Part shown: one piece after another, positions 12,480 through 63,941 of the stretch
Numbering within the stretch: position 1 is the first letter of the stretch
How the letters are laid out: each line of letters begins with the position of its first letter
Origin: Psammoneis japonica
Lineage: Eukaryota
Direction: 5' to 3'
DNA length: 64,000 bases
Assembly: GCA_008632985.1 (NCBI GenBank)
Contig: QPGO01000030.1
Location: 433,135-497,134 of the forward strand
Made by a program: the position numbers and the translations under genes
Notes under the pieces: generated by a model
What the model saw: only the letters and a program-made list of their open reading frames with translations
Told to the model about the DNA's origin: nothing
Databases searched by the model: none

Positions 12480-14013
12480 GTGAGCACCACTGTGTTGCGG
12501 CCTCTGGTGATGTGGCAGGTCCAGTTTGGTTGACTGGCATTGGCCATCATTCAGGATGCATCATTGTCCTTGCAGATGAGGGTGGCTTGCATCTGTGGTG
12601 CAGACAGTTCATCAAGAATGGAGCAAAGGTGCAAAGCCATCTTACCTGCATCCAACGCAGAGACAAATTCTGCTTCCAAGGATGACATGGACACCATGGT
12701 TGCACACGAATCTTCCATGCTGTGGTGGCACCGGTGAGTGGGAAGGCAATGCCAGCAATGGACCAATGGTGATGGATGTCGGCAGCCCCCAGTCAGAGTC
12801 CTTGCAGCCAGTGAGCTCTGTTGGAGATGCCGCATGAGGAGGTTGGGGTGACAGGTGGAGCGGAGGTGCAAACGGAAGAGATTTGTTGGAGCAGGGTCAC
12901 CAGCATGCTGGGTCAAAGTCCAGGTGACAATGGGTGCACCGCAGCACATCCTTGACACCTTCACAGAGGATGGAGCCAGGGTTGGAGCTGAGTTGACTCA
13001 GCTTGGCAATTGAATGACTCAGGTCAACTCTGGTGGTGACCATGGGCCCACATGAGTTTGCTGCTGGCTTTGCGGCAGGGGAAGCCATGCTGGTTTTGAA
13101 GTTGGTGGGATTTGGCTTTGTTGGCAGGGGGGTGGGGGCCTTGTCAAGAGTCTTGCTGTGGGAGGAGTTGCCAGGCATGGGGAGGGTTGGAGTTCACAGG
13201 GGTTCATCCAGCACATCAAAAAAGGGGCAGTTCTTCAGAATCTTTGAGGTGTGAGGTGCTGTGAAGGCAGATGCAGTCTTGGGTCTGCTCAACATCACAA
13301 CCAAGGAACAGAGTGAGCAAACCTTGACATTTGATCTTGCCTCCAGTCAGGTTGTCGTCCACAATGTCGCAGGCAATGTTGTGCATTGCATTGCCATTGG
13401 CAGCTGTTGCAAAATCGTCCACCTGTCAAAGGAATGGCACTTCTTTGCCATTGATCGCACCACTGCAGATCCACGGTTCATGGTCAGTGGATGCAAGGCT
13501 GAGTTCAGCGCAGATGATGCGGTTGATGTGCTTGTTCCACAGGTGGGGAGACTCAGGGTGTCCTTGGAAAGCCTTGAGAACTGGGAGCACATGCCCTTCA
13601 GGGGGACAGGAGGGCAGCAGAGATGGCTTGTCCACCAATTTTGGAACACCTTGTCAACACACATGTGGAAGCACTGTTTCGGTGGCAGAGATTTGGCAAA
13701 AAAGCATCACTCACATCTGTGCCATGCACACACTTGTTCTTCAAAGCTGCCAAAGCAAAAAGCAAGCACACACAAAACCAAAACCCATGTGGAACCACTC
13801 TGCCGGAGCCAGATCTGTGTCATCCACCACAGGGCCCACAGGTGCCTGTTTGGGCTTGGCATTGCTGCACACTTGGCAGAAGCAATGTGGGTGCAAAAAG
13901 GCCTGGAGAGCAGCAGGGAGGCCTTCAGCGTGGCGTTGCAGATGTGCAAGTTGATGCATGCTGGGGTGACCAAGATGGTGGTGCCACAGTTCACTGGTGG
14001 CCACACGTTGCAT
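12480..14013 (-). mobile_element. Ty1/copia (CoDi-like) pol remnant: GAG-pre-integrase, RT, RNase H; internally deleted
   Basis: ELWHHHLGHP..FCQVC, FHMGFGF; RT ALAA..HGTDVSDAF, KAFQGHPESPHLW, QVDDF, TRVDLSHSIAKLSQ; RNase H SSLEAEF..GKMALHLCSILDEL..ICKDN. Confidence 0.88.
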
Positions 14014-14274
14014 GGACCTCAGAGCAGGGTCCAGGGCATCTGCAGGGGGTGAAGGGTCAGGTGATGGCTCCAGCTGTGGCAGCAGGGCCGTGTCGGCAGG
14101 ATGGGCCTAGGAGGTGTGATCCAGAATGTCAAAAGAATGGCCACGGTTGCGTGACATGGGGCATGCTTCACAAGGGTGCGAAAAGTGCCCTGGAGTTCTG
14201 TGGCATCCATGGTCAAGGGAACATTGGGGCGGAAGTGCAGCACAAACCAGAGGCCATTTGCACTTGGTTGGCAA

Positions 14275-15160
14275 CATGCCACACCAGAAAAGTTGTGGAC
14301 ATCTTTCCTTGCAACCTGTCAGAAAGTTGAGGACAGCACATCAGAAAAGTTGTGGACAACCCATTGGAAAAGTTGTGGGCAGCACAGCAGAGAAGAGGTG
14401 CAGACAACTCATCAGAAAAGCTGCAAGCAGCACACCAGCAAAGTTGTCAACAACATGCCAAAAAGTTGTGCCAGGAAAAGTTGCAGGCATCTTTTCTTGT
14501 AAATTGTCAGAAGTTGTGTGCAGCACCTCAGAAAAGTTGTGAACAACCCATTGGAAAAGTTGAACACAACACACCAGAAAAGCTGCAGATGACTTTTCTT
14601 GCAACCCATCAAAACAAAAGCCAGGCACTGGGCAGTGGTGGATTTTGATCCTTGGATGTGGAACAATGCATGTCACAAGCCCAACAATTGTGGGCAACTT
14701 TTCTTGCAACTTGCCAGAGAAGCTGTGGACAGCACACCAAAAATGTTGTGGACATCTTTCCTTGCAACCTGTCAGAAAGTTGAGGACAACACATCAGAAA
14801 AGTTGCGGATGACCCGCTGGAAAAGTTGTGGGCAGCACATCAAAAAAGTTGCAAACAACCCATCAGAAAAGCTGCAAGCAGCACACCAGCAAAGTTGCCA
14901 ACAACATGCCAGAAAAGTTGTGCCAGGAAAAAGCTGTGGACAATCCATTGGAAAAGTTGTGGGCAGCACATCAGAGAAGTTGCAAACAACCCGTCAGAAA
15001 AGCTGCAAGCAGCACACCAGCAAAGTTGCCAACAACATGCCAGAAAAGTTGTGCCTGGAAAAGTTGCAGACATTTTTTCTTGCAAACTGTCAGAAAAGTT
15101 TTGGACAACACCTCAGAAAAGTTGTGGACAACCCATCAGAAAAATTGACAACAACACACC
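14275..15160. repeat. Complex tandem array built on AGAAAAGTTGTG/GGAAAAGTTGTG units with higher-order duplications
   Basis: Dozens of GAAAAG(T/C)TG cores; blocks at ~14280-14510, ~14735-14930 and ~14930-15140 are mutually similar. Confidence 0.85.
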
Positions 15161-15179
15161 AGGCATTGCATGTGAAACA

Positions 15180-15690
15180 AAGGGTGTCACAAGTCGGGCA
15201 ATTCTCCATCATGCAAGATGCACAACACAGCCCCTTGTGTCAATGCCTGTGCAACTGGGGGGCCAACCTGCCACCCACCAAAACATTTGCTGCCAACAAC
15301 GTCAAGGATTGAGAGATTGTTTCTGTGATCATGCACAAACATTGGTGTGTTGGGCACATGTCAAGAAGGCTCAATGCAACCAGGACAGCAAGAAAGCCTG
15401 CCTGAACAACTTGCACAACAAGTTCTTGGGCCCAGATGATGTTGACAACATGGCTGATGCAGCTGAAAGGTGCTCAGCAGGTCTTTCCTGTCACAGCAGA
15501 CATCAAGACAGGAGCTTTGAGTGGCCAATCCATGTTCATGTTGAGCAGCACTCTGTCATTGATGGCCTCAAGGAGTGTGGCCATGCTGGAATTGACAAAT
15601 GCTCCAAGGTGCACCACCTGCTGGAGAGAATCAAGGATGCGTCCCTTGTGTGTGCAACTTCTTCCAACGTATTTTCACAACAGATTTGAG
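15180..15690 (+). mobile_element. Copia (CoDi-like) gag remnant
   Basis: WAHVKKAQ..DSKKACL..HNKFLGPDDVDNMA..FEWPIHVHVEQHSVIDGLKECGHAGIDKCSKVHHLL resembles diatom copia gag with Tyr replaced by Cys/His (recalled family pattern). Confidence 0.7.
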
Positions 15691-16747
15691 GTGACTCCCT
15701 GTCCTCCAGTGTGTCCCTGCTGCACAGCGGACCTTCTGCAATCAAAGAGGGAGTCAAGAGTCCACTGAATTGACAGAAGATGATGTTCTTTGGACAGCTT
15801 GCAGTCAAGTCCAGAGCCATCCCATTGTGGAGAAAAGCAGGGATTTGAGAAAGCAATGATGCGCAGTTCCATGCAGGTTGCCTCTCTGTGGAGCCCAGAG
15901 CAGTTTTTTCTGTGTGCAGCCACCTCGCACAGCTCTGTGGGGTGCTCCTCACTTGGCTGTGGGTCAAGCTGTGCCAGTGTGTTTGGAAGTTGAACAGAGA
16001 ACTCACTTGGCTGGAAAAGAACTTTCACAGCTTGTCCACCAAAGCTTTCGTGCATTGACTTGACTGCTTTGCATGACTTCATTTGGCATGCCGCTGCACT
16101 GCTTGATGTGCAGAGCTGGCCCTTTTGCTGCAACTGTGCCCTCTCCCCCCACCCCAACAAACAGTGGGAAATCCATCAAAGATGGCTTGCCAAACTGTCA
16201 TTTGGGTGCTGTTGCAGCTCAGTCCATTGCCCAAAGTGATGCCGCAGAGACTCGTCGTGAAAGCTTCTCACGACAGAGAAACAACCACAGCTCTTGCTTG
16301 CCCAGCAAGTCAGGCAGAGTTGTCATCAAAGGACAACTCATTGGACTCATGCACACTGGTCTTGCTCCAACTGAAGCTTGTTGGTTCACTTGGGTGCTGC
16401 GCCTGTTTCCAAAGATGCCCAAAACTCCAGATTTTTGGCGGCACACATCATTTGACATCATCATTGCTTTCATTGACCCCAAAAATGGTTGCTTTTTGGA
16501 ACATTTTCTTTGTTCATTTGAAGCAAAGGCAATTGTGCAATTGCTGCAGTGCAATGATGCAAGTCATTCAAGCGAGCAACCAGGTTCTCAGTGGCCTGTT
16601 CCAGCCCCAGGTGATGAGAAATCCATCAAGCAAGAGGCCAATTTTCAGTGCAGTTTGGCGCATCAAACTCCTTCAAATTTGATCTTTTTTTTGTGTGCAC
16701 TCACCTTTTGATTTGGAAAAAACCCGATTTTGAAGCAGTTCATTGCG

Positions 16748-17430
16748 CCAAATGTGAAAATGGCCAGTGATGGGAATCGAACCTGTGCGCATCACCTGGA
16801 GCTGGAACAGGCCCCCAGTGAGAACAACCTCGCGGTCATTGTGGGAAACCACAACCAGATTCATGGTGCAAATTGCACAGCTGATGGGAGCTGCAATGCT
16901 CTGACTGGTTCAAATGCCATTGCCAATGGGAGCTGCAATGCTCTGACTGGCGCCGCCCAATGCTGTTGCCCGTGGGCACTGCAGTGTTCGATCTCATTGG
17001 CATCAATGCCTCTGCTGCAACTGCACATGGTGGCCAGCTTCCCCCAGCTCAAGTGCCTGACATTGGCAAAGCCACAAGCTCACATGCTTTCCACACTTTG
17101 ACTTTCATCATGGTGTCCAAGTGAACAATCTTGAGGATGGGATTCCTGTTGCCGAGCTCATCAAGGGGGGGGCATCCGCTGAAGAGCTGGAGCATGGCCA
17201 AGTGCTGCCAGATGACACGAGTGGGGTCAGATGTTCCATCTGCTGTGAGAGGTGCCCCAACTGCATTGCTTGGCCTTGCATGCTGCACAAGGGTTTTTGC
17301 ACACAATGCCTCCGGCTTTTGAGCTGTGGCCCAAGTGGAAGTGAAGCCAAGCGCACCAGCCAAGTCCAGTGCCCGCTCTGCAGCACAAACGTGTGCTCCA
17401 TTGATCGCATCTTTGAGCAGGCTGACTCAG
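16748..17430 (+). pseudogene. Degenerate gene with Asn/Gly beta-solenoid-like repeats and a C-terminal RING-HC finger
   Basis: GNHNQIHGANCTADGSCNALTGSNAIANGSCNALTG, then in another frame CSICCERCPNCIAWPC..HKGFCTQC...CPLCSTNVCSIDRIF. Confidence 0.6.
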
Positions 17431-17451
17431 ACCCCACGAAGTCATTTCATG

Positions 17452-17770
17452 CAAGAGGTCAATCTTTGGAAGATGACCATGTGCTGTCTTGTTTCCATGC
17501 GAGAGGTCAATCTTTGCAAGATGATCACCTGCGATGGAAAGCTCGAGACTCTCGGGTTTCTGTGGAAACACGACTCATTCTCCACCTCATTTCTGTGTGA
17601 GAGGTCAATCTTTGCAAGATGATCATCTGCAATGGAGAGCTTGGCTCAGATTTCTAAAGGCTTGGCTCACTGTGCGAGAGGTCAATCTTTGCAAGATGAT
17701 CATCTGTGATGGCAAGCTCAACTCAGATTTCCAGAGGCACGAGTCAATCTTTGCAAGATGATCATCTGCG
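17452..17770. repeat. Five copies of a ~30-bp repeat (GAGAGGTCAATCTTTGCAAGATGATCATCTG) with related variable spacers
   Basis: Copies near 17453, 17500, 17599, 17676 and 17741; most spacers share ATGG.AAGCT...CTCAGATTTC-like sequence. Confidence 0.85.
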
Positions 17771-18210
17771 ACAGAAAGATTGACTTGCATTTCTACAAGC
17801 ACGTTGTTGTGTCGACCAATGCAGCAACGATTTTGCAGATGTCTCGTTTTGTTTCTCTTGCATCTTGCCTTGCTTGCTCACTCTAGCCCTGCATTGTTTC
17901 CACCCGCCGTCATCAGTCATCGCTGTCCGGTCGTTTTTTGGCGCGCCCTGAGCTGAATCACGCACTGTCCACGCACACAGGTTGTTGGTTCCTCCTCTCT
18001 TGGGTGGAACTCTCTGCATCAAAGTCTGAAACCGAAAGATTTTGGATTGCCGTGCTCGCTGCCATCAGAAAATAGAGGCGTGACGATTGCTTGCACCAAT
18101 CATTTTGCTGCATTTTTTTTACCTGTCAAGTGAGTTTTGCGCCGGGCGTCCAAATCAATTGTAACATGTGACGGTTGTTTTTTCGAAACAGGGTGCTGCG
18201 GCAAGGGCTG

Positions 18211-18716
18211 AGATGAGCGCGCGGACACAGGAAGTGGTCAGTCCCGCATGCTCGTGACTCAGCACTTTCCTGCGGTGAAAATTGCGCAGAGATCCGAAGA
18301 TGACAAAAACGGTCTGATGACTTCCGCCAACAATGATGTTGGCTGCATGTGACGTACATTCAATGTTCTTTAATGTGTGAATGAACCACTTTGAGCATTG
18401 GATGCAGTTGCTTTGACGAACTTCGCCAAAACAACGCTTGGCACTGCTTTGCGTGCAAAGCTGCGGCACTCCGCACGACTCGTCTTTCGTTCGGAGCACC
18501 TTCCAGTTCATCAAAGTAACTGCGTCTAACGCTTGAAGTGGTTCATTCACATGTTAAAGAACATTGAATGTACATTGCATGCAGTTGACATCATTGTTGG
18601 CGGAAGTTGTCGGACCGTTTTTGTCATCTTCGGATTTCCACGCAATTTTCACTGCAGGAAAGTGCTGAGTCACGAGTGGGCGGGACTGACCACTTCATGT
18701 TTGCGCGCGCTCATCT
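18211..18716. repeat. Foldback element: ~212-bp inverted arms (18211-18422 / 18505-18716) with ~82-bp spacer
   Basis: Arms align without gaps by eye; most mismatches fall in pyrimidine-purine dinucleotides. Confidence 0.88.
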
Positions 18717-18883
18717 AAGCCCTTACGCACTTCTGCACGACCCACGCGACCTGACTAACATGCGTTGGGGCCAGAGCAGTGCGCGGTGCTGGTTGTTTTG
18801 CTTCTGACCGTTCTGTCTTCTGTGAGGTTTCATGAGTTCATCTGTGCATGTTGATGTTGTCTAATTCGAGGTGCGGTGGCTTG

Positions 18884-19097
18884 AGTGAAAGTGCAAGTGT
18901 GCGAAATTTGCGCATTGATGCGGTTGTCTTTGCCAAATGGTTGGCTGCAACTTGCGCCCATTCCATCATTTCTGTCCATGCTCGTTCCGCGGTGGCTCAA
19001 GTGAAAGTCCAAGTGTGTGAAATTTGTGCATTGATGTGGTTGTCTTTGCCAAACAGCCAGTTGCAACTTGCACCCATTCCATCATTTCTGTCCACAC
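18884..19097. repeat. Tandem direct repeat, 117-bp period, 2 copies
   Basis: GTGAAAGT.CAAGTGTG.GAAATTTG.GCATTGATG.GGTTGTCTTTGCCAAA...CCCATTCCATCATTTCTGTCCA at 18884 and 19001. Confidence 0.8.
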
Positions 19098-19772
19098 TTG
19101 TTCCGTAGGATCCTTGCTTGCTCCTTCTCCTGCTCCGTTGCTCCCACTTCTTCCAGCTCCTCCTCAGTGAAAAATCTCCCACCAGTCTGTGGTGGTGCTG
19201 CCGCCCATGCTGCCTTCAGCTCCTCCATGGTTGAATCATCCCTGGGCACGACCGTTGCTTCCACACGATGACCGTCCACTCTCGTGTTGTCTGGCGCAAG
19301 TGCAGATGAGACATCACAATTTCCTGAAGCAAGCTTGAATGCTGCTCTTGCTTCTTCCACCGTAATCTTCTCCCCGCCTTCTTCATTCATTGCTGACCAA
19401 AACAGCTCCGCATCTGTCTGCACCCTTTTCTTGTCCTCTCCAGTTTTCTTTGGCTCGTCTGCCTTCTTTGTTTGTTGTTGCAAATCCATTTTTCTCTGTT
19501 GCTCCATTTTGTGTGACGTTTGCATTCACGCATTCTTGGTTTGTTGGTTGAAATCCATTCGACATTGTGTGACGCATGTGCAGATTTCTGCGCAATGTGC
19601 TGGTCTAATCGAAATTGTCGATTTTACGAAATTGTCACATTTTTACGGTTGGTTTTGCCAAACAGTTGCACAGTGGTTGGGCACCCTGATCTCATGTTTG
19701 CGTGCTGCATTGACACTTCTGCGTGTTGTTGCTGAGAGAAATGCGTGGCGCTTCTCTCCTTCATGAGTCTTG

Positions 19773-20275
19773 TCAAAGGCTTCGTAGCCTTTTGGGACCT
19801 TGCATTTTCGCAGGTCCTTGGTCAGTGGCTTTTCGCATGAACAGCCCTTCTCTGGTCTTTGCTCTGGAGAGCACAACATGCACCCAATTCTGAGTGCAGC
19901 TCCAAGAGTGTACAAACAACTGCGGGACTCCACTCCCTTGCAGTTTGTGCCCTGCAGTGGCACTGTTGATGACAAACGGCAGCTGGGTTGCCTTCAGTTG
20001 GAAAGTGCACCTTTGTTTGTCGCCTTCTTCTAAAGTTGGGTTGGGCTTGGCAATGCAGGCCCTGAAAGCATTTGCCCTTGGCTCAACTGAAAACTTCACG
20101 GGGGTGATGCTTTTGTTGCGGTGTTCCAACACAACATGGTCTGCCTGACTGGCAAGCACAGCAGGAACGCCAATGTTGTTGTCTAAAGTCACTGGTCTTG
20201 GCTCCTGTCCTGGTTTGAGAATGACCTTGTTGACAGTGGCTTGCACTCCGTTTGCTTGACCCTTTGCCACAGCTG
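19773..20275 (-). mobile_element. PIF1-family helicase C-terminal remnant (Helitron-like)
   Basis: GQANG, QLPFVINSATAGHKLQG (motif V) and NWVHVVLSRAKTREGL (motif VI). Confidence 0.8.
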
Positions 20276-20769
20276 TCGTGGTCGCACCACGAGTGGCTCC
20301 TCGTCGCACTGGACACCCTGGGGCCCACGTAGATTCCAGCCGCGCTGCCTTTCTGGAGCTGGCACGCAGTGAAAAAACCAGTGCCTGCACCCCTGCGTTG
20401 CGAAAAGTGGAGCTCGCCCACCTCCACCTCCTTGGGACCTGTGGAGCCAGCGGACTTTTCGAGGCAAAACAATGCAGGTTGAAGTGACGCGGCGCCTCAT
20501 CCAAAAATGCACACTTCTTTGCTTGCTCTCTTCATGAGGCAGACCAGTGCGAGCGACCACCCCGCTTCGAAAGCCTCGACGGCGGTCTTGAACATTTTGT
20601 TGCTCTTCGGCATTGAGTCTGGGATGCCCCTCTCGCCGACTTCCATGCGGCACCTCCACGCCCACTTGTGGTGTTCGCCGTGGGCATTGGCAATGGCTTC
20701 AGGGTCACTGCTGGTGCACCCCAGTTCTCCCAGTGCGGGGAACCAGAGGTCGGGATGATTTTTGCAGCA

Positions 20770-21190
20770 TGCATGCAGACAAAAGGTCATTTTTGTCATG
20801 CCCTTTGTGACATTTAAAGGCTGCAACACGTCGCCGTGATGCATTGACTCTTGTCAGTGGCTGTGTGTTGCACTCCTCCCCATGTGTCACGCGTCCATGC
20901 GGCTCTTTGCTGACGTGCACTGACACTGCACGGTTTTGGTGGAACAGTGTGGGTGCGCATGAAGGAACAAACAGAACTGCACAGAGTTTTGCGCATTCGA
21001 CAGTGACCAACGTTGCTGCAGACAACTCCCACTCAGGGTTTCGAACCCCTGGCCTCCTGCCCAATGGTTGCGATGAACCATTCCGCTGTGAGCTCACAAC
21101 GCAGTGTGCATGCAGACAAAAGGTCATTTTTGTCACGCCCTTTGTGACATTTAAAGGCTGCAACATGTCGCCGTGATACATTGGCTCTTG
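20770..21190. repeat. ~83-bp direct repeat, copies at 20770 and 21107
   Basis: TGCATGCAGACAAAAGGTCATTTTTGTCA.GCCCTTTGTGACATTTAAAGGCTGCAACA.GTCGCCGTGAT.CATTG; copies differ by CG/TG twice and TA/TG once, plus one other transition. Confidence 0.85.
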
Positions 21191-22794
21191 TTGGCAGCTG
21201 CACATTGCAGATTCGACGCATCCTTCATCATGCACATGGCCTCCTGGAAATTTTTGGATTTTTCGTGCCGCCACAACCAGTCCCACAAGTCGAGCGACGG
21301 CTTGCTGGGGTCCGGAAATTGCTTTTCTTCCTCTTTCTCTTCCTCCGTTGCTTTTGTGGCCACTTTGGCCATGGGCTTGGCTGCCTCCTCGCTTTTGCCG
21401 CCGCAAAGAGCCAGGGCCTCCGGTTTCAGGACGGTGGCCTGTCCACCCAACACGTCGATCTTGCAACCAGCCAAAAGGAGCTGCTCGGCGGTGCAGCCCA
21501 GCTGCTCTGCTTCTTTCAAACCACAAATTTGAAAGGTTGGCTCCGGCGGCACGGCTTTCTCCCCATTTTCACTTTGGGACTGTGCCGGCTTCTCCGACAT
21601 CCTTGTGCGTTCGGACTTGACAGACACACACCCTCGGCACTTCCCACGGCGCCGAGTGCAGTCATGGCAACTGCCGCCGCAGTCATGCCTTCGGCGCCCG
21701 TGAGTTCTGCCGCCACTTCCAGAGCTGCTTTGCCAGACAGAACCATGTTCTCCTCCGCCATTCTGACGCCGTGATGACAGAGGTGCGCTGACTGCTGTGT
21801 GCTGTGTTCCAGGCGTTGGCGATCCACATCCTTCTGCGCGCACAAACGCGCGACACTTTGCACCGCACTGAATTCGACGTGCCCAACGATGCCCAACGCA
21901 CCCCACCTGCCGCTCCCGAGTTCCTCAACGGCCTGCCTCCACCACTTGTATGGGGCTACGACTAGCAAAAAATGCAATATGATATAATCATTGACATATA
22001 AAAAACATTGATATGATATATTAATGACGTATATACAAGAATGCTGAATGACTGCATATGACTTTTTGTGTAACATTTGTACTGTTCTACGCACTTAACG
22101 AAGAAAATGCTGAGGCAATACATAGAATGACTCTTCATAAGTACGAATTCAAATGAAGGTCATGCCCACGCCCGCCACGCCATTTAATCAAACATACGAG
22201 CATATATGAAGTATTATTCAAAGACGGAGTTGACAAACGGAGTATCGACGGTTGAATGTGTAACATTAAAAAAACATCTAAATAGTTGAAAAGTATGGAC
22301 TTTTGTGAGACATTTGTATATGTAGCACATGTAAAACCTGCTATTTGTTTTGGCAAAAACCGTTATCGTTAAATAAAGGGGTACATAAAATCCAATACAA
22401 AATGTCTGACCGGTATAACAGGTACGTTTATGCTAGTCGTAGCCTCATAATTGTCGCCGGGACGTGGTGCGTCTGCACCTCTGTGCGTCCGTCTGCACTG
22501 CGCACTGCGGTGCTACAGCGCCCCGCTTTCTTTTCCTTTTCTCTTCTTCTGGCTGGGAGGAACTGCTGGATAGCCTGGGTATAACAAACAACAACACTTC
22601 GCACCTTCGTTATCGTCATTGAAGAAACCACAAAGCACATAAGAGCTCTTAAACGACTTATAATCCATCGGCAATGGTGAAACGAAAAGTTAAAGCCAGT
22701 CTGAAGACTGACAGCATGGAAAAGAAGGCTCCGCCAGTTTTGAAGCTCCCCAAACAATGGCCAATGGCAACTAAACGAGCTTCTTCTTCTCCTC

Positions 22795-41095: not shown

Positions 41096-43064
41096 TTAGT
41101 ACGATCGCTCTTGAAGAGCTTGGTCCATTGTTAGTACTTCTGGCGAGCCCAGACCTCGCCAGCATGTGACATGTACAAGCATAGACTCTGATTCTTTTTC
41201 AGCCGCGTCGTCGTTTAGAACCTCGATTTCTCGACAGTTGCTATACTTGTATATGCCATCGTCATTGTCAAAGAACATTTTGAAGTTGATTCCGCAAACA
41301 ACGCATCGGTCTCGAGATTCGTCCGCAGGAACTGTGAAGGTGGACGGGTCCATCTCTTCTTTATCCGCGGCATCTGGCGTTTCCGCGTCAGCGCTTGTCT
41401 CGGTGTCCGTCTTTCCTTCTTCCCCGCACCAAGCCTTTCCAGAAACGAACCAACCTCGTTCTTCAGTTTTCTCCATAGATTCTAGTAAGCGGCTGGGACA
41501 AGAAAAACTCCATTATGTTGAGGTCTCGAGCAGAAAGGTGTATTTCAACGGAACACTAAATTTCACGAACCTATTTCTGAACAAATCGTCAAGGTGATTT
41601 GACAACTCTATCTGAGTAGCAAAGCGACGCCCGTCAGAAGAGCTCACGAATGGTAATCCGACTTCATAGAGTGCACCAATAACCAAACTATTCTTCTTCT
41701 TCACACCCTCGTTGGTAAACAACTTTGTGTCGACAGGAACGAATTGCGTTGCAACATGACCATTCCCGGCAGGATTCATTTGACCAGGAGGTAGCATGTT
41801 GAAGCTATTAGACTGGTTTTCCTTGCTTTCTTCTTGGTCCTTTATTCGTTGAAGAGCGTTTGTCAGGAGAGCAGAGGTCGCAGCAGACGCGGCAAGCAAA
41901 CTAGTCATTCTGATAGCATCAGATTGTGAGTATGTCTCATTTGTTGCTGAATCAGTGATAACAAAATGCTGGAGCTTCGTCACAACGTCATGAGTTTGGT
42001 CTAGATGGTTCCAGTTCAACTTCTCCCAATCATTGGAGCGGGCAATTGCTTCGGGCGTGCGAGTCTCCACGAATATTGACGCCGGAAAATCCTGCGAGTT
42101 CCCTTCGGCCGCACCTATTCCACTACCTTGCCCGCCGCTAATCATATCCTCGGCGGCTTTTTTAATTTCAACGAGGAGAGCCGGATTGATGTCTGCAAGA
42201 CGTTCCAAGGACACCTTATCTAATTCACTTACACCCGTATGCGCTTCGTCTAGAAGAATTTGCATTTGTGATCTCAGGGCAGCGGGAAGTTCTAAGGAAC
42301 CATCAGGCTATAGCCAGAAAAAAAGAGGGAAAAGGGTCTCGATAGTAAGGAACGCGACATCAATTGAGACCACACAACCCCTCACACATTTTCGCCGCAC
42401 TCACTGCGCGAACAATACCAGCAGCCCTGTTTTTTGCATTTGCCGCAAGTTTCTCTGTTGATAGCTTAGCGTCCGCTTGCTCAAACACATGTCCCATTTC
42501 TTTCCAATTTGTTTCGCTAAATATACCAACGTCTCTCCATATATTCCACACTTTCTTAAGCTTTATTCGCTGATCGTCGCTCAAGTCGTCAAAGACAATC
42601 GGCATCCACGTCTTGGCATCCATCTCAATTATCGGAATAAACGCGCCTTTCACATTCTTAAGAATAGAATCAACCACATATACAAGAGGAAGCTTTCTCC
42701 CACTTGCAACTGACTTTGATACCAACGGTTCGCGGATACAGTTGTACAGTGCCTGCGCGTTCTTACGGGATCCGGCGTGATCTTCTGCCACCATACTTAA
42801 ACTGTTTATTGTAACTTTGTCCTGGATCAAAAGCGCAAAGGTTCGACGCAAAGAAGATAAGAATAAATAGATTGGTCAAGCGTAAAAGCAAAATCAATGC
42901 CAACGTACAGGGAAACTGCCGAGTTGTTCTATCATTTCTTGATATTCCTCAAGCTGCTCTTCCTCTATTTCGTCTTCATCCGAGTCATCGATTTCAACGG
43001 CATTATTTTTGCTCCCTTCCGTCGAATCTTTCGACTCGGACGATAGTTTTGGTCGCGTCTCCAT
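41096..43064 (-). CDS. PCF11: mRNA cleavage/polyadenylation factor PCF11 (CID domain + C-terminal zinc-binding region), multi-exon
   Basis: DKVTINSLSMVAED, KLPLVYVVDSILKNV, GRRF..LSNHLDDLF, RGWF, VPADESRDRCVVCG..F and HVTC motifs. Confidence 0.85.
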
Positions 43065-43363
43065 CTTAGTTGGCGATTCAGGCTTGTGCTTTGTTACGAT
43101 GTTTATGATTGATGATCCATGCCCATGGCGGACAGCAACGAAGAAGTTGAGTGGAACGCGATCATGTAGAATTGTACGGTGGATTTGTACTGCGGGTCGT
43201 ACCGCCAACCCGCACCAGCATCAACATTGTTATTTGAAATGCTGCTCCATCGCTCAGCTTGGCATGCGAGAGGTTGGATGACAGAAACAGCGCTAAGAAC
43301 AAGATGGGCATTGTCAATGACAGAGGTCTACAAAATATGATCGTCGCTGTTGCGATTGCGATT

Positions 43364-46300
43364 GATCGGAAAAGTGAGTTTCAAACTGAGTTTGGAGCTG
43401 TGATCATGATGTGCTCAGTTGTCTTCTGTCTTCCATGACCAAGCTGAGTTGATCGCAACTCTCCCCAAGAACACCAGCCAGCCCACATTCCTGGCTGTCT
43501 GGAATGTTTTTGCAGAGAGTTCCTTCATGAACTGGTCTGCCATTTGTTCAGTGGTGGTGCTGCCAACAGAGGTCCCAGAGACACATCAATCTCCAGAAAG
43601 AAGATCCTTTGCTTCCTTGAAAAACCACCAGTGATGCCACATGCAGAACACCAGCATGCTTGGTTTGTGAAGAGAAGTCCAACATGTGGGCAAATTTGAG
43701 ATGTGCTGCATGACCTCATGCACAACAAATGCTGGCAAGGTGTGGCACAGTCAAAGGGACACTTGTTTGCACCCGCCTTTGGAGGGCGGTGTGTCAAAAG
43801 CCTTGGAGTGGTGGTGTGCAGCGTGGACACAACCGACGTGGTTGTGGTGGCAGCCAAACTGCTCAAAATGTCAGCACACTGATTTTCTTGAGATTTTTGT
43901 GAGCAGTGGCAAGATCTGGAGCATGAACAGCTCAAAGAAGTGTTGCATGTTTGTCTTCCAGCAGAGCAGCAAGTGACACTGCAGCTTGGGCATGCGCAAA
44001 CAATCAGACAAGAAGAACAACCAGCACCCACCAGCCATGGCCCAGTGTTGCAACAAACAAGATTGGGGTTGAGTCTCGGCAATCTTCTGTCCATCAAAAC
44101 ATCCTGCCAAGTCACAGTCAATGCAACAATCAATCGACAGTTGGAAGTCAGCTTCAAAGTGAGGCCTTGGGCAGAAGCAGCCTTGTTGAGGCAGTGAACA
44201 ACAACATGTTTGGCTGCTGAAGCATGAGATGCACAAGCTCCCAGGTGAACAAGAGAATTTTTCATGCAGCTGAGCAGTGCCAGCAATGCCTGGCCAGCTG
44301 CTCGCTGCCAGATGCACTGACATTGCAACAACAGAACAAAAATTGAGTGATTTCTTTGTGATGATTCACCATTGTCTGTGGCATCAGGCAAGGGAGTGGC
44401 TGGCAGAGCAGGGGGCACTGCACTGTGCTCTTCTCCATCTTAGAGTTTCACAGCCCATTTCCAGCCATCAAACCAGGCTGAGTTGGTGAAAAGCAACAGC
44501 TTCTCAATCTTGGCTGCAAAGAAGTTTTTAAGTTCTCTTTCATCATGAAGAAGCTTGAGTGCATTGCCTTGTTTGTGCCAAGAGACCCTCCCCTGGCTTG
44601 CAAGCTGTGCCTTTTCAAGATCATCAGAGCATTCTCCAGCAAAACCAGCCAGAGTTGTCCACACATGGATGATGCACAACATTCCCTTTTTTGAAGCAAA
44701 GACAAGTGCTGACATTGGATGACATGTTCATTTGCACTCTGGCACACCACCAGCTCTTGGCTTTTCACAAGAGAATTTTGGAAATTGCTCCAGATTCTAC
44801 AAAGACACCTTTCAAAAGCTTCAGCACTGCCATGTTCAGCCCTGACTTTGGAGTGAATCCTCTTGTCAGTGGCTGCACACAGACACCTTCTTCTTGACCT
44901 CAGCTTGAGCAAATGCAGCAGCACAGTTGACTTGGCAAAAAAGATGGGCATTTGACCATGATCATTGAAAAACAGGTGTGCACATCTTTCAAAGCAGCCT
45001 GCTTCATGTGTTTTTGCTGAAGATTGCCATGAATGCAGCATTGCACCCTGCACTTTGGAGCCCCGCTTTGGATGGCTCTTGAGTCCAACGCCTGTGTTCA
45101 GAGCAAAACACTCATCTTGGGGGTGCACTTGACCAGCTCCTGCACATGCAGGACCAAAGCTCCAGCTTTGATTTTCATGGCCTCAGCAACCTGCTCAAAG
45201 TCAGGAGCCCTCAGAGCTTGACACAAAAATGGCTTGTTTGAACCCCTGGTCTTCTTGGCAGCAGTGCTGCAAACTCTCAGACAATGATGACACAAGTTCC
45301 ATGTTGACAGATGTTTTTTACAGAGCAGTCCAAGGTGCGCCACCTGCTGGGCTTCTTGACATCCAACTGGTTTGTCTTGAGACTTCAGCAGACTCTTGGA
45401 TGATGATGCACTTCATCAGCAAACTTGGTGGACAAAACCTTGCCCCAAACAGGCCAAACGGACCTTTGTGGCATTGTTTCTTCCCCCAGATTTGAGCTCA
45501 GTGAAGGCCCAAGTGGAGTGGATGCTTGAGGTTCTTAATGTGAGCCTGCTGGTGATCCTGCCATTTTGAATGCAGAATGGAAGTGAGTGCAGTGCAGCTT
45601 GAGGCAAGTCATCTGTGGTTGTGCTGTGGGGGCATGCTCTGAGAGGTGGGTCATCCAAAGGCATTTCTTGAGATGTCTTGAAGAGTGGTCAGAGGAGCAA
45701 TTGCAGCTGGAGAGCAATCCCAGGAGATGGTTGAAAAGTGTGATGGACATCAGCTTTGCACAGAAGTTGATTTTGCTTTTGTTGCATTTCTGGTGGCAGA
45801 GAGTTGACCAAAGATCTTGTGGGTGCACTGTCCAGTCTTGTTTAAAAGGAGTGCAGATCAGCATCTGCTTGAGACACTGAAGTTGTCCCCAGTGACTTTG
45901 GGTGAGTTGCTCCCCAACTTGATGTCAACAACACTGCAATGAAAAGATTGTTGAAAACAACACACAGTGCTGAGGAGAGCAATGCTTCAAGCATGTGAGC
46001 CCAGTTCACAAAAGGAACTTCACTTGAGCGAGTGTTGCTCCAGCTGACAAGCAAGCTGTGCTGAGATTGTGGTGCCATTGAGGCAACTTCTTGCCAGATT
46101 GGAGAATGATGGGGTCAAGGACATGATCTCTGGACATTCTCCCCACATGGTGAACATCCTGCAAGCAATGGCAAGGCATGCTGTGTGGACCCAGTGAAAA
46201 CATCTGTGCAAAGCAGTTGATGATGGAAATTTTGATGCACGCAGCATTGCAGTTGTGTGCACCATGGCATGAGAAACCACCACCGGCTGCTCATGCCTCC

Positions 46301-49300
46301 CCCCCAATTAAAGAATGCTGAGTGGGATGCTGTGCTCAGCAGTGCCATTCTGATGGTTGGCAGCACAGAACAGTGTGTGCACATTGCTCATGCTGGCAAG
46401 CATGTGTGTGAAAGAGTGATCATTCCATGGCTTCCTGCATCATTTTGAGCAAGATCAATGACAAGGTGAGCTTGTGCAGGGCACCATGGCATGAGAACAT
46501 GGGTCCTGGGGGACACAAGTGTTGCCACCACCTTGCTTGCAGGGGGGGGGAGAGCAGCAAATGACTGGTGCAAATGAAAGAAGAAACAATGAAATGAGAG
46601 AAGATGCAGGAAAGAGACAAGGCTGTTTCAGAGGTGCTCTGCAAGAGCATGTTCTTTGAACTCTGCAAGCTTCTCAACAGAAATGCCTTCAAGCAAGAAC
46701 CACATGCAACAGAGGGTGACTGTGATGTCAGACGTGCTGAACACTCTACAACAGCACAAATGCAAGCAAATTTTGGGTTGATCAAAAGACAAGGTGTGTT
46801 GGCTGATCACATGAAAATGCAACAACAACATGTGCAGAGAGCCAAAGCAAGAACACCTCTGTGGTCAGCAACAAACAAAAACACACAAACAACAACAAAC
46901 AGGTTGGAGACCATCAACACATTTTTCTGTTGCCATGAACTGTGCTGGAACACACAGGCAGAAGAAGGGTTGTGGCGCACTGGAGGGTGCTGCTGATTGC
47001 AAAAAGGTGCACCACTCCTCCATTGGAGCAAAATGACAAAAAGCCAGGAAACCATTGTGGTGCATGTTCTTTTCATTTTGCACACTGCTTTTAGCCAGAG
47101 CTGCAGTTGGGAAGAGTGCATGAAAGAAAATGATTGAGGTGCAAGTGGTGTGGCTGCTTGAACAAGCTTGCAAGGAGAGGGGGCAGCACAGCACTTGCTC
47201 CATTGGTGCTTGAAAACAACTGGAGAAGAAGTCATCAAAAAGAAGAGCTGCAGCGGGAGTGGCTCAACACCTGTGGGGTGAGTGCTGGAGGCCAAGTTTG
47301 CAAAGAAGCAAGCACAAAGGTGCCAGGGCCAGATGAAAGAGGAGGAGCTGGCCAGGTGCCAGGAGTTGGGAAAGCAGGTTGTGGGTTGATGGCCAGAGAA
47401 AGACCAAGGGGGTGAACTGTGATGAAATTTGGCCACAACAGCTTTGCACCACCAGCTTGTGGTTTGCAAGCTGCAAATGGTGGGACACCACCTCCAGGAG
47501 TGCAAGACACACACCAAAACCAACAACAATGGTGATGACAACTCTGATGACCCCAGAGGCATTGTGGGTGACAGTGTGGGCAGTGCTGCAGAAGCACTGC
47601 TTGTTGGTGAATCTCAGCTGTGCGAAAAACAAAAGGACAAGAGGGTGTGCAGCACACAATGAGGGTGACTGCAGCACACTTTATGATCTAAAAACACTGG
47701 GTGAACAAAGCAAAAATGAGTGATCCTGGGCAACCCGAATGGACAGGAGCTGAGCTGCAAGGGCACAGGAGCCCAGCACAGAAACCTGTGGCAGAGCACA
47801 CACTGCAATTTGCCAGCCCACATTGAAACAGCTGCAGGTTTCTGAAAAAAAAAATTGAAACAGCCACAGGTTTCTGCCCCCCCCCCCCCCCCCCCCCCAA
47901 AAAAAAGCAAAAACCCACATGGTCCATCCAGGCCAGGCAGACACAAAAATGACTTGGGGGCACTGAACCCAAATTTCCCCACTTTGATGCTGGCCCAGCT
48001 CAGCAAGAGTCTGTGCCATGCATGCTCACTTCTGCTCCAAAACTGTTGTTTGAGCACTGCCTTCAAGCCTTTCTTGACTTGGAGTTTGTTCAAAGCATGT
48101 GCGATCCTTGTCACAGTTGTTTGGTCTGTCTGTGTGTCAACAAGAATTGTGGGGATCAGCAAAGCACCAAAGTCTGCCATTGTGACCAAATGACACCTCC
48201 AAGGCCTGTGTGAGGCACAATTCAATCTCACCAAGGAAGGTGGCTTTGCCAAGTTTCTTTGGGTTGAGGAAGTTCAAAAATCAGGAAGATTGCACTGCCC
48301 AGTTGTCACAAACTGGGTTGACCAAGAAGGTCTTGGCCATGATGACTGGTGGTGCATGCTGGAGGGCTGAAAAAAAGGCACCCAGTGCTGTCCCTGGGCT
48401 GCTGTTCCACTCAAAAGGGCTTGGAAGTGGCCCCAATGGCAAGCCCAACATGGGCGAGCCTTTGTGCCCCCCAACCATTGGGTGCCCCCCCAACCATTTG
48501 TGTGCTCTTGTGTCCAGCATCTGCCAATGCTCAGTCTGACAATGGTTTGGATGTGAGCCAAGTTCAAGTTGCCAGGTTCAGTGTGGGTCCAAAGCAGCTT
48601 CACATGACCAGCCCACCACTGCCAAAGCCATCATCCAATGCCACAAGAGAGCACACACTTTGCTGCCACAGGCATTGGATCCACTTGATTTGATGTGGGT
48701 CAACATTGATTTTGTTTCTTTTACATTGATTTTGTCTCTTCTGCTCTTTTGCCAAGAACAAGGCCATGTCTCTGACTCCATTCAGTCTTGTGTTGCCTGC
48801 TTGATCATCCTGAATGCCCGCCCTTTGTTCTGGAAATCTCATCTCCAGATGCTCCTCTCTCTTGCTCCCCACCCTTGAAGCTGAGTGCCAAGTCACTCGC
48901 CACTTTGTTCCTGGGACCCCACCCCTCCTCTTGCCCTTGCAGAGGGTGCTCCACCACACAAGACAGGAGATTGCTGTGCTGGCCCTTGATGTGCTGGACC
49001 TCTGCTGTTTGCAACCAAATGCCAAGAACCAGCATGCCAAGGTCTCTGCCAGAGTCCCACAATGGCAAGTTTCTGGTCATTGGGGTTGCATGGGCAAGTC
49101 AGCTTTCACAGATTTCCTTGCCAAGCCTTCAACACAAGAGAGAGCTCTGCTTGCCAACAGTGAAGAAAGACCAGGTCTTCTGGATTGTCAGAGTTTGTTT
49201 GTCATTCTTTGTGTGTTGTGGCTCAGGAGCCAAGATTGAGAGTTCTGCAGTCAGGCTCTGAACTTCCCCGTTGTTTGAGCAGCAGATTCTTGCTTTTGTT

Positions 49301-50130
49301 GATTTGTCTCAAATGGGCAAATCAAAGGGAGAGTCAAGGATCATCTGCCCAGCAAGAACCCAGTTGTGTCTCTGTTTGCTGATCAACACAGTTGACCCCA
49401 CCTCATTGGTCTTGACCATTGGAGTTCAGCAGTGCTCACAATGCCGGCTGTGCCCAACATGTTTGCTTCACGAGGTTTTTTTGGCTCTTTTGGTGCAAGG
49501 TTGAGATTGTTGGTTGGCTGGCATTGCCAGCAAGGTGACATGCCAGCTGGAAGCATGGATTTTGTCATGATGTGAAATGTCTGGTGGTGGCACACTCATC
49601 AAGATTTTGGCCAGGGCAGCTCACAATCTCAGTCAGCTGTTCGTGTTTGTTTGCGAAAGACTTTTGACTGAGCACTGCCCTGCTGCTCACAAAGAGTGTC
49701 TCCAATTGCACTTCATGTGAGGCACCAATCTAGCTGGAGTGGACATCCAGTCAAAATGCTGGAAGATGCACGAAGCTTGGCACACACCAGAGCTTGGACT
49801 CTGTTGTGTCTCCTCCTGATCTCTGTGGAGTGTGAAGATGATCGACTTGTGCAGAGAGTGCATCCCAACAGGGCATGTTCCAGCAGGGAAGCCAGATGTT
49901 GGAGTTGAGAGGATGGCAGTGACAGGGCTGGCCCTGCCAACTCCTCTGCATGGTGCGGTGAAGCCTTGAGGCTCAGAAGATTGAAGCAGCAACAACACCA
50001 CATTGGTGAACCACCGCTTGCAACAGCTGGGCCTGGACCAGCTTCGATGCAAAATGAAGCGACATGAACCTGAGAAACATTCTCTCCGCTGCTGCAGCTG
50101 CTAGAGACTTTTGGTTTCTCTTTTCCGATC
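43364..50130. mobile_element. Island 2: ~6.8-kb degenerate, TpA/CpG-depleted insertion with candidate terminal inverted repeats; coding content unidentified
   Basis: GATCGGAAAAG (43364-43374) and CTTTTCCGATC (50120-50130) coincide with the compositional borders; only about a dozen TpA inside. Confidence 0.65.
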
Positions 50131-50393: not shown

Positions 50394-50900
50394 CTACGAC
50401 TCGGCGACCTCCTCAAAGTTTCCCTCCACGAGATCAGGGACATCATCATCATCGTCATCATCATCCTCGACACCCTCAACTCCTGGAACTCCACCCTGCG
50501 CTTGAGCCTGAGCGGCGATGCTTTGGAGTTGAGAGAGATTGTCCATGCCGAGCTGCGAAACAATACCGGGGAGAAGGTCCTGCAACGGCTTCGTTTCGGA
50601 GTGCCCCGAAATGATGTAGGTGTTAGCAGCGAGGGACGCCTGGACCTTTGGATTGACGAAATGAATGATATTTCCGTCTTCCTTGAAAAGGTTAACTTCC
50701 TCAATGCCGGGAATGTTGGTAGCTCCCAGCTTCTTCAGCGCGGCTCCCAGCTTTTGATCTGATTGCGCTGCGGAACTACGTGATGCAACCTTCTTCTTAC
50801 GGCGAACAGATCCCTTACCGCCCGTGGATGTCGAAGCTCCGCCAAATCGTTTTGCAATCATTCTCTGCCGAGCTTCGGCCATTTCTGCAGCGTCCACCAT
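50394..50900 (-). CDS. BTF3: Nascent polypeptide-associated complex beta subunit (BTF3/EGD1)
   Basis: TGGKGSVRRKKK, LKKLG..NIPGIEEVNLFK, IHFVNPKVQAS..ANT, LPGI..QLG and DVPDLVE.NFE motifs. Confidence 0.93.
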   Translation of the reverse strand: MVDAAEMAEARQRMIAKRFGGASTSTGGKGSVRRKKKVASRSSAAQSDQKLGAALKKLGATNIPGIEEVNLFKEDGNIIHFVNPKVQASLAANTYIISGHSETKPLQDLLPGIVSQLGMDNLSQLQSIAAQAQAQGGVPGVEGVEDDDDDDDDVPDLVEGNFEEVAES

Positions 50901-51877
50901 CTTGATCCGTTAAAATGCAGGAGATAGAGGGGAGAAATCCACAAAGGAATCTATTCGTTGGTTTGGAGTTCTAGAAAACCACCCAAAACAAAATAACAGA
51001 AAACGCAATCGTTAGTCTTCGGCTCCTAAAAGATGTACTGCATCACACTCAAAGCACTTCTGAAACCGGTCTGTTCACTGTTCCCTCCGAGACGAAAAAT
51101 TCCGTCGGCGTCAATTCAGCGTGACGGCTCTAACAACTGAGAAATAACAACACCGCAAACAATAATGAGCATCTCTTTTAAAGACACTCGTTGTGGTGCG
51201 TGTATCATCCGTCTTCTCATTTGTCAAGGAGCGCCATGGGCATCAACATACCTCTTGAGTTTTCACTGCCTCCGCTGGGAGCACCGTACAGCTTGTACTG
51301 CGATCTACGCGGATCCACGGGGGCGAGATGTAGGGCGGGAATAAATAGGTGATGAGTGTAGTAAGTGGTACAGTCCTACGAAGGTTTCTCGTAAGTAAAT
51401 TCACGTGGAGGATATACCAGCGGATACAAAGCAAGAGGAATCTGGAATTCACCCTTTTTGACGCGACATACCGTCGTCAACCTCTGATTATTTATATTTC
51501 CAGTATTTAACAGTACTTATCCATAATATTTGTATAAGTTCACATATACGCGCATATGTTATAATAGTATAAAAAAATTGTATACAAACAGAGCCAGCTC
51601 TCGTCAATGTCGATACTGTACTGTACATACAAGTACTATTCAAAGGTCATCCTCAGAAAGCCGTTAACCGTTGGCACATGAATCATCGCCATTTTATTTC
51701 CTCGCCACTCGCCACATTATTTTCAGTCCACAGTGAATTTCAAGCCTCCACCAAGACGTTGACTGTTGACGCTGACTCCTTGCTCCGATGCTACGGCATG
51801 CTATTGTTAAGTTTAGCACTTAGTTTGCCTGAAGTGAAGCACATACGACCATTTCGACAACTGATCAAACATCAAAA

Positions 51878-60264: not shown

Positions 60265-61442
<1,178 letters not shown>

Positions 61443-61901: not shown

Positions 61902-63941
<2,040 letters not shown>

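Follow-up and report, generated by a model that had tools for sequence, protein, structure and literature searches.

Two islands of TpA depletion in the genome of the diatom Psammoneis japonica follow a neighbour-base rule and point to conversion of TpA in place

Introduction

Targeted A-to-G hypermutation of chromosomal DNA was unreported in eukaryotes before a single preprint of 2026 on a rhizarian alga, the chlorarachniophyte Bigelowiella natans (Mettrop et al., bioRxiv 10.64898/2026.01.13.699255). According to the main text of that preprint, integrated blocks of giant-virus (nucleocytoplasmic large DNA virus, NCLDV) and virophage DNA acquire mutations during mutation accumulation at about 1000 times the rate of the remaining genome, nearly exclusively by the change of TpA to TpG or CpA, in only some of the lines and on single-copy DNA. 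The same source gives a de novo rate at TpA of about 6e-7 per site per generation in the integrated viral DNA, reports 124 clusters that are depleted in TpA and enriched in CpA and TpG, names ADAT2 as a candidate and cites DNA activity of BjADAT2 and TbADAT2 (bioRxiv 10.64898/2026.01.13.699255). Here we describe a 64-kb window of the diatom Psammoneis japonica (contig QPGO01000030.1, the whole stretch of DNA that was analysed), in which two blocks, referred to below as island 1 and island 2, have lost nearly all of their TpA steps.

Several better known systems mutate or edit nucleic acids with a preference for particular neighbours. Repeat-induced point mutation (RIP) of fungi deaminates C, mainly turning CpA into TpA, thereby creating TpA and destroying CpA and TpG, and it needs duplicated sequence. 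The tRNA adenosine deaminases TadA and ADAT2-ADAT3 target an A that follows U or T (U33-A34 of tRNA), and their product is read as G. Hyperediting by ADAR and hypermutation by APOBEC3 act on RNA or single-stranded cDNA and leave strand-pure tracks.

Results and discussion

Extent and composition of the islands

Island 2 was compared with island 1 and with the non-island remainder of the window (coordinates of the features are collected in Table 1). A first-pass annotation of this DNA had counted about a dozen TpA in some 6.7 kb where hundreds would be expected, and the count holds: between 43364 and 50130 there are 14 TpA (observed/expected ratio, o/e, 0.03), against about 430 expected from base composition and about 260 from the density in the remaining window. 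Twelve of the 13 positions that it listed are exact, one is off by one (given as 44440, correct position 44441) and one TpA, at 50102, had been missed. Within 43340-50101, 13 TpA remain, whereas the TpA density of the window outside the islands would give 259. The annotation also spoke of a second island with the same signature, and indeed island 1 (5486-21948) shares the signature while being unrelated to island 2 in sequence.

The number of TpA per 500-bp bin falls from 13-30 outside to 0-2 at about 43.4-50.1 kb and about 5.5-21.9 kb, and the longest TpA-free gap measures 199 bp outside the islands, 1105 bp in island 2 and 1985 bp in island 1. The edges of island 2 are sharp, the final ordinary TpA on the left being at 43336 and the usual density returning from 50102/50147.

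What had been overlooked is that the loss of TpA is accompanied by a parallel, separable loss of CpG and by a gain of CpA and TpG. Island 2 holds 43 CpG against 398 expected (o/e 0.10, compared with 0.42 in island 1 and 0.96-1.06 outside the islands) and 1531 CA and TG steps against 932 expected. The o/e of CpA and TpG reaches 1.77 and 1.85 in island 2 (1.72-1.77 and 1.67-1.85 over both islands, 1.05-1.17 outside), whereas that of TpA outside the islands is 0.57-0.63. The other dinucleotides and the base composition are ordinary, with G+C unchanged at about 0.49, and AA is not depleted (o/e 1.19 in island 2 and 1.19-1.37 across the islands, 1.10-1.18 outside), in agreement with the earlier remark that AA is not comparably targeted.

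TA, CG, CA and TG are the pyrimidine-purine (YpR) steps, which interconvert by single transitions. In island 2 the combined deficit of TA and CG (600) equals the combined surplus of CA and TG (600), and YpR steps number 1587 in all, where the flanks predict 1588. The island resembles normal sequence whose TA and CG were converted to TG or CA; in purine/pyrimidine terms it is indistinguishable from ordinary DNA of the same genome. The gain is about equal for TG (784) and CA (747), and the two products are interspersed (runs test on their order: z=-1.18 in island 2, +1.42 and +1.68 in two parts of island 1), which means that both strands were hit, site by site, without long strand-pure tracks.

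Neighbour-base rule of TpA loss

As transitions do not change the purine or pyrimidine class of a base, the TA share of YpR steps is comparable inside and outside the islands, and the context test was based on this fraction, sorted by flank class (Y, pyrimidine; R, purine; N, any base). The first-pass annotation stated that all surviving TpA are preceded by a pyrimidine. This is true of 13/13 sites in 43340-50101, with p=1.5e-5 against the NTAN mix outside and p=9.8e-5 against the YpR-step mix of island 2 itself; the bias in 5'-flank class therefore stands even if the TpA now present arose anew among the YpR steps of the island. Most survivors had been described as YTAR and none as RTAY: RTAY is indeed absent, as is RTAR, and "most" amounts to 8 YTAR (p=0.008 for 8/13 against the island's own mix) beside 5 YTAY. 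The flanks do not share this skew and lean the opposite way, YTAR being the rarest class (287/1549) and RTAY the commonest (480/1549).

Relative to outside, TpA survival in island 2 is 0.16 for YTAR, 0.10 for YTAY and 0 for both RTAR and RTAY (p=2.8e-4). The corresponding values in the island 1 core are 0.14 for YTAR, 0.04-0.05 for the mixed classes (YTAY and RTAR) and 0.013 for RTAY (p=1.4e-4), and in the island 1 tail 0.50, 0.10-0.18 and 0.06 (p=1.4e-5). The order YTAR > mixed > RTAY is thus seen in three separate regions, depletion is unequal across the NTAN contexts, and the survivors of island 1 lean the same way as those of island 2, just as the annotation had it. Every NTAN class is depleted by at least 84% in island 2, so the context bias is a difference in rate and not a protection of some sites.

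The survival values fit a model in which the survivals on the two strands are multiplied. A log-linear model of all islands, with a separate term for each strand, gives survivals of 0.71, 0.22, 0.25 and 0.04 when the base 3' of the target A is A, C, G and T, respectively, and the same order of 3' bases is obtained in each of the three regions. Expressed as conversion, T >> C≈G >> A, in proportions of about 3.1 : 1.5 : 1.4 : 0.35. A model that separates Y from R beats a uniform one (likelihood ratio, LR, 39.3), a four-base model beats the Y/R model (LR 40.6, df 2, p=1.5e-9), and three classes, A, C or G, and T, are sufficient (p=0.65). The neighbour rule is that T-A-T is converted fastest, T-A-S (S, C or G) at an intermediate rate and T-A-A slowest, leaving TTAA-type sites. 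The target put forward earlier, A in 5'-TAY-3' on either strand, was right in that the loss is directed and affects both strands, but the division follows the four bases rather than Y versus R. The broader reading of that annotation, an enzyme-like context specificity instead of GC-biased drift, is largely right, as G+C keeps its level, the changes are restricted to YpR steps and AA is spared.

TpA is self-complementary, so a rule in which the deciding base lies two positions 5' of the target A, with A-T-A fastest, describes the data no less well. The counts of ACA+TGT against ATG+CAT (366:299 in island 2, 792:786 in island 1, 1377:1230 outside) are ambiguous between a T at +1 and an A at -2.

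Mutation in place: repeat copies and a second genome copy

Repeat pairs in island 1 were found by a transition-blind self-comparison in purine/pyrimidine code and then aligned in real letters. The YpR columns that differ between the arms of the inverted pair are CA/TG (7), CG/TG (4), CA/CG (2), TA/TG (2) and CA/TA (1), with 2 transitions elsewhere; those of the direct pair are CA/TG (5), CG/TG (3) and TA/TG (1), with 1 transition outside YpR. TG opposite CA between repeat copies is what is expected from the independent resolution of one ancestral TA or CG. Diverged tandem arrays are also present in island 1, and the older repeat arrays of its core bear a broader transition load, 20/33 transitions of the pair in the 23/46-bp array lying outside YpR.

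A second source of evidence is the public run X1, with which the comparison covers one other genome copy. Its contigs with island 2 measure 3463 and 1805 bases at a depth of 55-57, compared with 62 in the flanks; this match in depth indicates that island 2 is single copy there, and the contigs have indels of their own, so they represent a genome copy different from that of the window. The window and X1 differ at 43/6616 positions in island 2 and at 2/2832 in the flanks (odds ratio 9.3, p=2.8e-5). From 40 of the 78 difference rows 34 events were built, and among these 19 set CG or TA against TG or CA: 11 are CG versus TG/CA, in both directions, 5 are TG/CA doubles, one is an adjacent pair of CA/CG and CG/TG, and 2 are TTAA/TTGA, one in each direction (Table 1). 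There are 9 other transitions and 6 transversions. Tandem changes between TG and CA are otherwise very rare; the doubles fit a two-step path through TA or CG, i.e. a fast erasure of newly arisen TA or CG.

Transition-only conversion of YpR steps is therefore visible in place, both after duplication and after the split of the two genome copies. The differences between repeat copies and those from X1 point to an in-situ, still active mutation process at the DNA level.

Some further features of the same sequences may be mentioned. The tandem array at 14312-15162, built of 23/46-bp units, has copies that are only 63-72% alike, and it also contains a 131-bp unit repeated at 96%. At 51343-51747, X1 yields two alternative contigs with depths of 24 and 24.4, against about 60 elsewhere, which suggests a heterozygous stretch in a diploid genome. 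Several contigs of X1 and of another run, X2, match only 47286-47379 (about 90 bp of island 2) and then run into unlike, CpG-containing sequence, which hints at a related piece elsewhere in the genome.

CpG loss as a separate process

CpG survival shows no flank dependence (p=0.48, 0.15 and 0.22 in the three regions). In island 1, no 1-kb bin has TpA above 0.34 of expectation (range 0-0.34), but the CpG values are spread between 0.12 and 1.07. In the bins 18001-19000 and 21001-22000, CpG stands at 1.04 and 1.07 of expectation while TpA is at 0.34 and 0.26, so TpA erasure precedes CpG decay and does not require it. CpG loss is separable from TpA loss, slower and context-free.

The CpG o/e far below that of the surroundings and the CG versus TG/CA differences from X1 in both directions have the pattern of methylation-type decay. 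The loss of CpG is most likely due to deamination of methylated CpG in silenced DNA, and methylation decay would be the most economical reading of it. According to PMC2806351, cytosine methylation occurs on LTR (long terminal repeat) retrotransposons in the diatom Phaeodactylum, and preliminary evidence places it in the CpG context.

Proposed process

Based on our observations, we suggest, with a probability of roughly 70%, that the islands result from a region-limited, in-place conversion of TpA to TpG and CpA that obeys a neighbour rule, together with a slower loss of CpG. The islands are single-copy stretches that are no longer coding, and they are probably foreign or transposon-derived DNA lodged between ordinary diatom genes. 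A process acting on the DNA itself, and limited to these regions, would change the A of TpA into G on either strand, site by site. Each TpA would end as TpG or CpA, and new TpA would soon be erased; about 95-97% of TpA are already gone. The rate depends on the neighbouring base, fast for T-A-T, middle for T-A-C and T-A-G and slow for T-A-A, so that TTAA-type sites remain. A second, slower process, independent of the flanking bases, would lead from CpG to the same products.

We infer that the agent may be a polynucleotide adenine deaminase of the TadA/ADAT2 kind, as proposed for B. natans, directed to silenced or foreign chromatin, and that the conversion of TpA may serve genome defence.

Several points weigh against this interpretation. 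The surviving sites behind the context test number 13, 24 and 29, the ancestral NTAN frequencies were approximated from the host flanks, and the base-specific hierarchy was tested against the flank baseline only. Some of the remaining TpA may be newly arisen and not survivors, and island 2 alone, with 5 YTAY against 0 RTAR, hints at a strand asymmetry (p=0.06). The island also has more of the differences from X1 that fall outside YpR steps (15 of the 34 events), so relaxed constraint alone explains part of its extra divergence. The term "foreign DNA" is applied to island 2 by analogy, as no Pfam family at E<=0.01, homologue of its two tested reading frames, repeat or codon periodicity was found there, and methylation in the islands likewise rests on the analogy with diatom LTR elements. 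The deaminase, finally, is a putative agent, and none of the domains in those flanking open reading frames (ORFs) of the window that were scanned is a deaminase domain.

Alternative explanations

A modification of adenine at TpA, e.g. symmetric N6-methyladenine on silenced DNA, could make A mutable through deamination or faulty repair, in parallel to 5-methylcytosine at CpG, and a single silencing system would then account for both losses as side effects. TpA and CpG are each self-complementary, as would be expected of marks of the maintenance type, transitions turn both into the same products, and the islands have domain-like edges. However, the losses of TpA and CpG are uncoupled in extent and in context dependence, and the known symmetric adenine methylation of eukaryotes falls on ApT, not TpA; we regard this explanation as unlikely.

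The DNA might also have arrived already depleted, as a virus or mobile element with its own avoidance of TpA and CpG that was then integrated, so that no host process is needed. Both islands are insertions between housekeeping genes with a source not recognisable in searches, which would suit such an origin. Nevertheless, the density of YpR steps equals that of host DNA, and the degree of loss varies along island 1 although its edges are sharp. The repeat copies of island 1 diverged specifically at YpR steps (TG/CA, CG/TG and TA/TG columns), and differences between the window and X1 fall on sites of this kind as well, running in both directions. To our knowledge, no natural genome has a TpA o/e of 0.03, and a pre-depleted arrival appears quite improbable.

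A third possibility is error-prone repair: deamination of 5-methylcytosine would leave mismatches that attract mismatch repair and polymerase eta, an enzyme prone to miscopying WA motifs (W, A or T), as happens in the second phase of antibody somatic hypermutation. A-to-G at TA is a hotspot of this polymerase, and CpG decay does occur in the same islands. The pattern of polymerase eta, with AA also mutated and many transversions, was not found: AA is not depleted, the changes in the repeat pairs are almost only transitions (25:5, 18:1 and 15:0), and 66-74% of TpA is lost where CpG is intact. We consider repair of this kind very unlikely.

Equally little speaks for RNA editing followed by reverse transcription, by which a hyper-edited retroelement transcript would have been copied into DNA, even though island 1 contains a copia remnant and the adenosine deaminases that act on RNA have a preference for a 5' U. 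This 5' preference is also stated in the Discussion of the B. natans preprint (bioRxiv 10.64898/2026.01.13.699255). Editing of a single strand predicts one product, whereas TG and CA are interspersed in island 2 in nearly equal numbers, and conversion went on in situ once the repeats had been duplicated and also between the two genome copies. Moreover, the order T > C≈G > A at +1 does not resemble that of ADAR, which prefers a 3' G, and strand-pure tracks with a 3'-G preference are absent from island 2; this route is hardly credible.

An artefact of sequencing or assembly, in which a long-read basecaller would have read modified A as G and modified C as T, is no better placed: methylated bases do give A-to-G and C-to-T consensus errors in nanopore assemblies, but the basecalling artefact was rejected on the independent X1 contigs, in which the depleted sequence recurs with 0.65% differences and with separate indels, and a strand-specific mixture of miscalls would not assemble into interspersed TG and CA.

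Fungal RIP was rejected as well, since the o/e values of TpA (0.03), CpA (1.77) and TpG (1.85) form the reverse of its pattern, island 2 is single copy, and the relatives of the SF1 protein in the window are from diatoms. A fungal host had been considered because the nearest Atlas clusters of the SF1 protein mostly bear the label Basidiomycota; it was dismissed in view of the diatom homologues and of the TPI-GAPDH fusion.

Content of the islands and neighbouring genes

Pfam searches of island 2 on 66 ORFs of at least 60 aa gave no family at E<=0.01, six ORFs having one chance-level match each (E 0.012-0.095), and searches on its six read-through frames (stops as X) gave none at E<=0.01 and one at 0.14. 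The reading frame 46810-48273(-) has no homologue among 4007 candidates, and the frame 43528-44439(-) gave 0 matches in a full HMMER scan of 1.84 billion representatives. A blastn search of the 64-kb window with island 2 found no second copy, and a transition-blind blastn in purine/pyrimidine code found neither terminal or internal repeats nor similarity to island 1 (top score 49, compared with 44-54 in 10 shuffles). Rfam gave 0 matches and the tRNA scan 0 genes. There is no residual codon periodicity in island 2, as purine/pyrimidine 3-periodicity was detected in 0/13 of its windows and in 34/86 outside.

For island 1, Pfam searches on 106 ORFs returned a copia-type remnant, which recurs at E=2.6e-4 in a read-through frame, and otherwise chance-level matches only; no reverse transcriptase or integrase core was found with the remnant. 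The read-through frames of 9000-17600 gave nothing at E<=0.05, and the 389-aa ORF at 9981-11147(-) has no homologue. Part of island 1 thus shows signs of having come from a transposon or virus, whereas for island 2 such an origin is no more than an assumption.

Table 1. Coordinates of the islands, repeat pairs, polymorphic sites and genes in the 64-kb window
Feature	Position	Strand	Details
Island 2, TpA- and CpG-depleted, CpA/TpG-enriched block	43337..50101		Fills the gap between the CID-domain gene and the NAC gene
Island 1 core, same signature, CpG partly lost	5486..17600		TpA 24 vs 463 expected; CpG 220 vs 713
Island 1 tail, TpA mostly lost, CpG almost intact	17601..21948		TpA 29 vs 166 expected; CpG 219 vs 255
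Left edge of island 2, no TpA, yet 5 CpG kept	43341..43370		CpG at 43342, 43345, 43353, 43359, 43367; next at 43454
Inverted repeat pair, island 1	18201-18422 / 18505-18726		222 aligned positions; 25 transitions, 5 transversions
Repeat pair, island 1	18872-18992 / 18988-19108		18 transitions, 1 transversion; 4 TG/CA columns; 2 transitions outside YpR
Direct repeat pair, island 1	20763-20872 / 21100-21209		110 aligned positions; 15 transitions, 0 transversions
Repeat pair in 23/46-bp tandem array	14280-14593 / 14733-15036		33 transitions, 11 transversions; 5 CA/TG columns; 20/33 transitions outside YpR
Polymorphic site	44895..44896		TTGA in the window, TTAA in X1; slow-class TTAA site converted in one lineage only
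Polymorphic site	45536..45537		TTAA in the window, TTGA in X1
Degraded copia-type GAG-pre-integrase remnant, island 1	13744..14106	-	PF13976, E=2.3e-6, 27.7 bits, under the 28.4 cut-off
CID-domain host gene, left neighbour of island 2	42360..42875	-	PF04818, E=8.9e-11; normal dinucleotide content
NAC-domain host gene, right neighbour of island 2	50394..50909	-	PF01849, E=8e-24; normal dinucleotide content

The window is eukaryotic and intron-poor, and it contains housekeeping genes: SF1/BBP, Pex2/12, SNF2, CBS, NAC, CID and a TPI-GAPDH fusion. The best named relatives of the SF1 protein are from pennate diatoms (Bacillariaceae, Nitzschia, Cylindrotheca and Amphora), at 61-72% identity, with no near-identical entry. 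No RNA run is listed as containing island 2, and the contigs of X2 cover both genes flanking it but on the island itself only a piece of depth 4 (47116-47466), which is not evidence of silence. The X2 contigs skip 97 bases (42307-42405) and 87 bases (42820-42908) with CT..AC ends, i.e. GT..AG on the minus strand. The skipped stretches look like introns of the CID-domain gene, and given these intron-like joints X2, although recorded as "DNA?", behaves like an RNA run.

The TPI ORF runs directly into the GAPDH ORF (62054-63941, plus strand), a fusion arrangement typical of stramenopiles. A second GAPDH-like stretch (60265-61284, minus strand) lies inverted, 1.7 kb upstream; over 921 bases, 60274-61194 and 63012-63929 show 95% identity when compared in purine/pyrimidine code. 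About 2 kb from island 1 there is a gene for a MutY-type adenine glycosylase (2401-3571, minus strand) with HhH-GPD, HHH and NUDIX_4 domains, apparently split by an intron or a frame change; the product is a repair enzyme acting on adenine, and its position near the island is probably a coincidence. An uninterrupted ORF of 2685 aa (30692-38749, minus strand) encodes WD40, EF-hand and RanBP zinc-finger domains and includes a 2-kb internal direct repeat (32638-34655 and 34498-36515) and a 267-bp tandem array (31867-32798). The intergenic patch 40471-41000 shows an excess of TpA (58 in 500 bp, o/e 1.64), the opposite extreme from the islands, and has a 57-bp tandem repeat rich in CTAG/TAGAG.

Comparison with known systems

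Like RIP, the process seen in the islands is a region-limited, transition-only hypermutation at the DNA level which follows a dinucleotide rule and would ruin invading DNA. It differs from RIP in its chemically reverse pattern, in the single-copy state of island 2 and in its diatom host; if our interpretation is true, it would be the mirror image of the fungal system. Decay of CpG in methylated transposons would explain the CpG half of the signature (CpG to TpG or CpA, context-free and slower). It leaves TpA untouched, whereas in the islands TpA loss precedes CpG loss and can occur without it.

TadA and ADAT2-ADAT3 share with the islands the T or U before the target A and the reading of A as G; their natural substrate, however, is a tRNA loop and not chromosomal DNA, and we know of no report that the +1 rule T > C≈G > A is a property of these enzymes. 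Clustered transitions with a neighbour preference, in a deaminase-based defence, are also the mark of ADAR and APOBEC3, but the islands are hit evenly on both strands and in place.

The closest likeness is to B. natans. By the main text of the preprint, both systems change TpA to TpG or CpA on both strands, in confined blocks and on single-copy targets, and both show clusters with TpA depletion and CpA and TpG enrichment, those of B. natans being mostly without annotation (bioRxiv 10.64898/2026.01.13.699255). In the diatom, the change of TpA is seen in the mass balance, in the TA/TG, CA/TA and CA/TG columns of the paralogues and in the TTAA/TTGA polymorphisms, with CpG loss as an addition, and the confinement in the sharp edges and in the excess of differences from X1, which is a single comparison. 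The density of single-nucleotide polymorphisms in the block is raised 27-fold in B. natans according to the same text and about 9-fold in the diatom island, the latter measured against X1 and thus not a per-generation rate.

The two systems also differ. B. natans is a rhizarian, whereas the islands lie in a stramenopile. The diatom TpA has been reduced to 3-5% of expectation, which is near saturation, compared with a Rho of 0.45 given for the NCLDV block of B. natans. CpG is co-depleted in the diatom islands; in the main text of the preprint CpG, flanking context and trinucleotides have 0 occurrences each. The preprint deals with viral targets and de novo mutations, whereas the diatom islands, for which a viral origin is only one possibility, are known from polymorphism and paralogue divergence.

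It is conceivable, although we would sooner doubt it, that diatoms and chlorarachniophytes both have an adenine-directed counterpart of RIP, either in common or because it evolved twice. Its agent would be a DNA adenine deaminase targeted to chromatin, which would erase TpA from silenced foreign DNA to saturation and keep it erased, and which would have an intrinsic T-A-T > T-A-S > T-A-A rule. In that case the loss of CpG may even be a weaker second activity of the same enzyme instead of methylation decay. If this reading is true, the saturated footprint in a diatom would reveal a wider, possibly ancient principle of genome defence in an ecologically weighty group. The neighbour rule is a testable prediction for the enzyme and for the published list of 231 de novo TpA mutations of B. 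natans, and it could then serve as a fingerprint of the enzyme and of such islands across eukaryotes. TpA-free islands would offer a simple genome-wide marker for silenced foreign DNA, and a natural DNA adenine deaminase acting on chromatin would interest base-editing research.

A literature search, which did not extend to subscription journals or bioRxiv supplements, found no paper on TpA-directed hypermutation in diatoms. The signature itself is not new to science: the phenomenon has already been described once, recently, in B. natans, and what is new here is the diatom lineage, the near-saturation of the loss and the detail of its sequence context.

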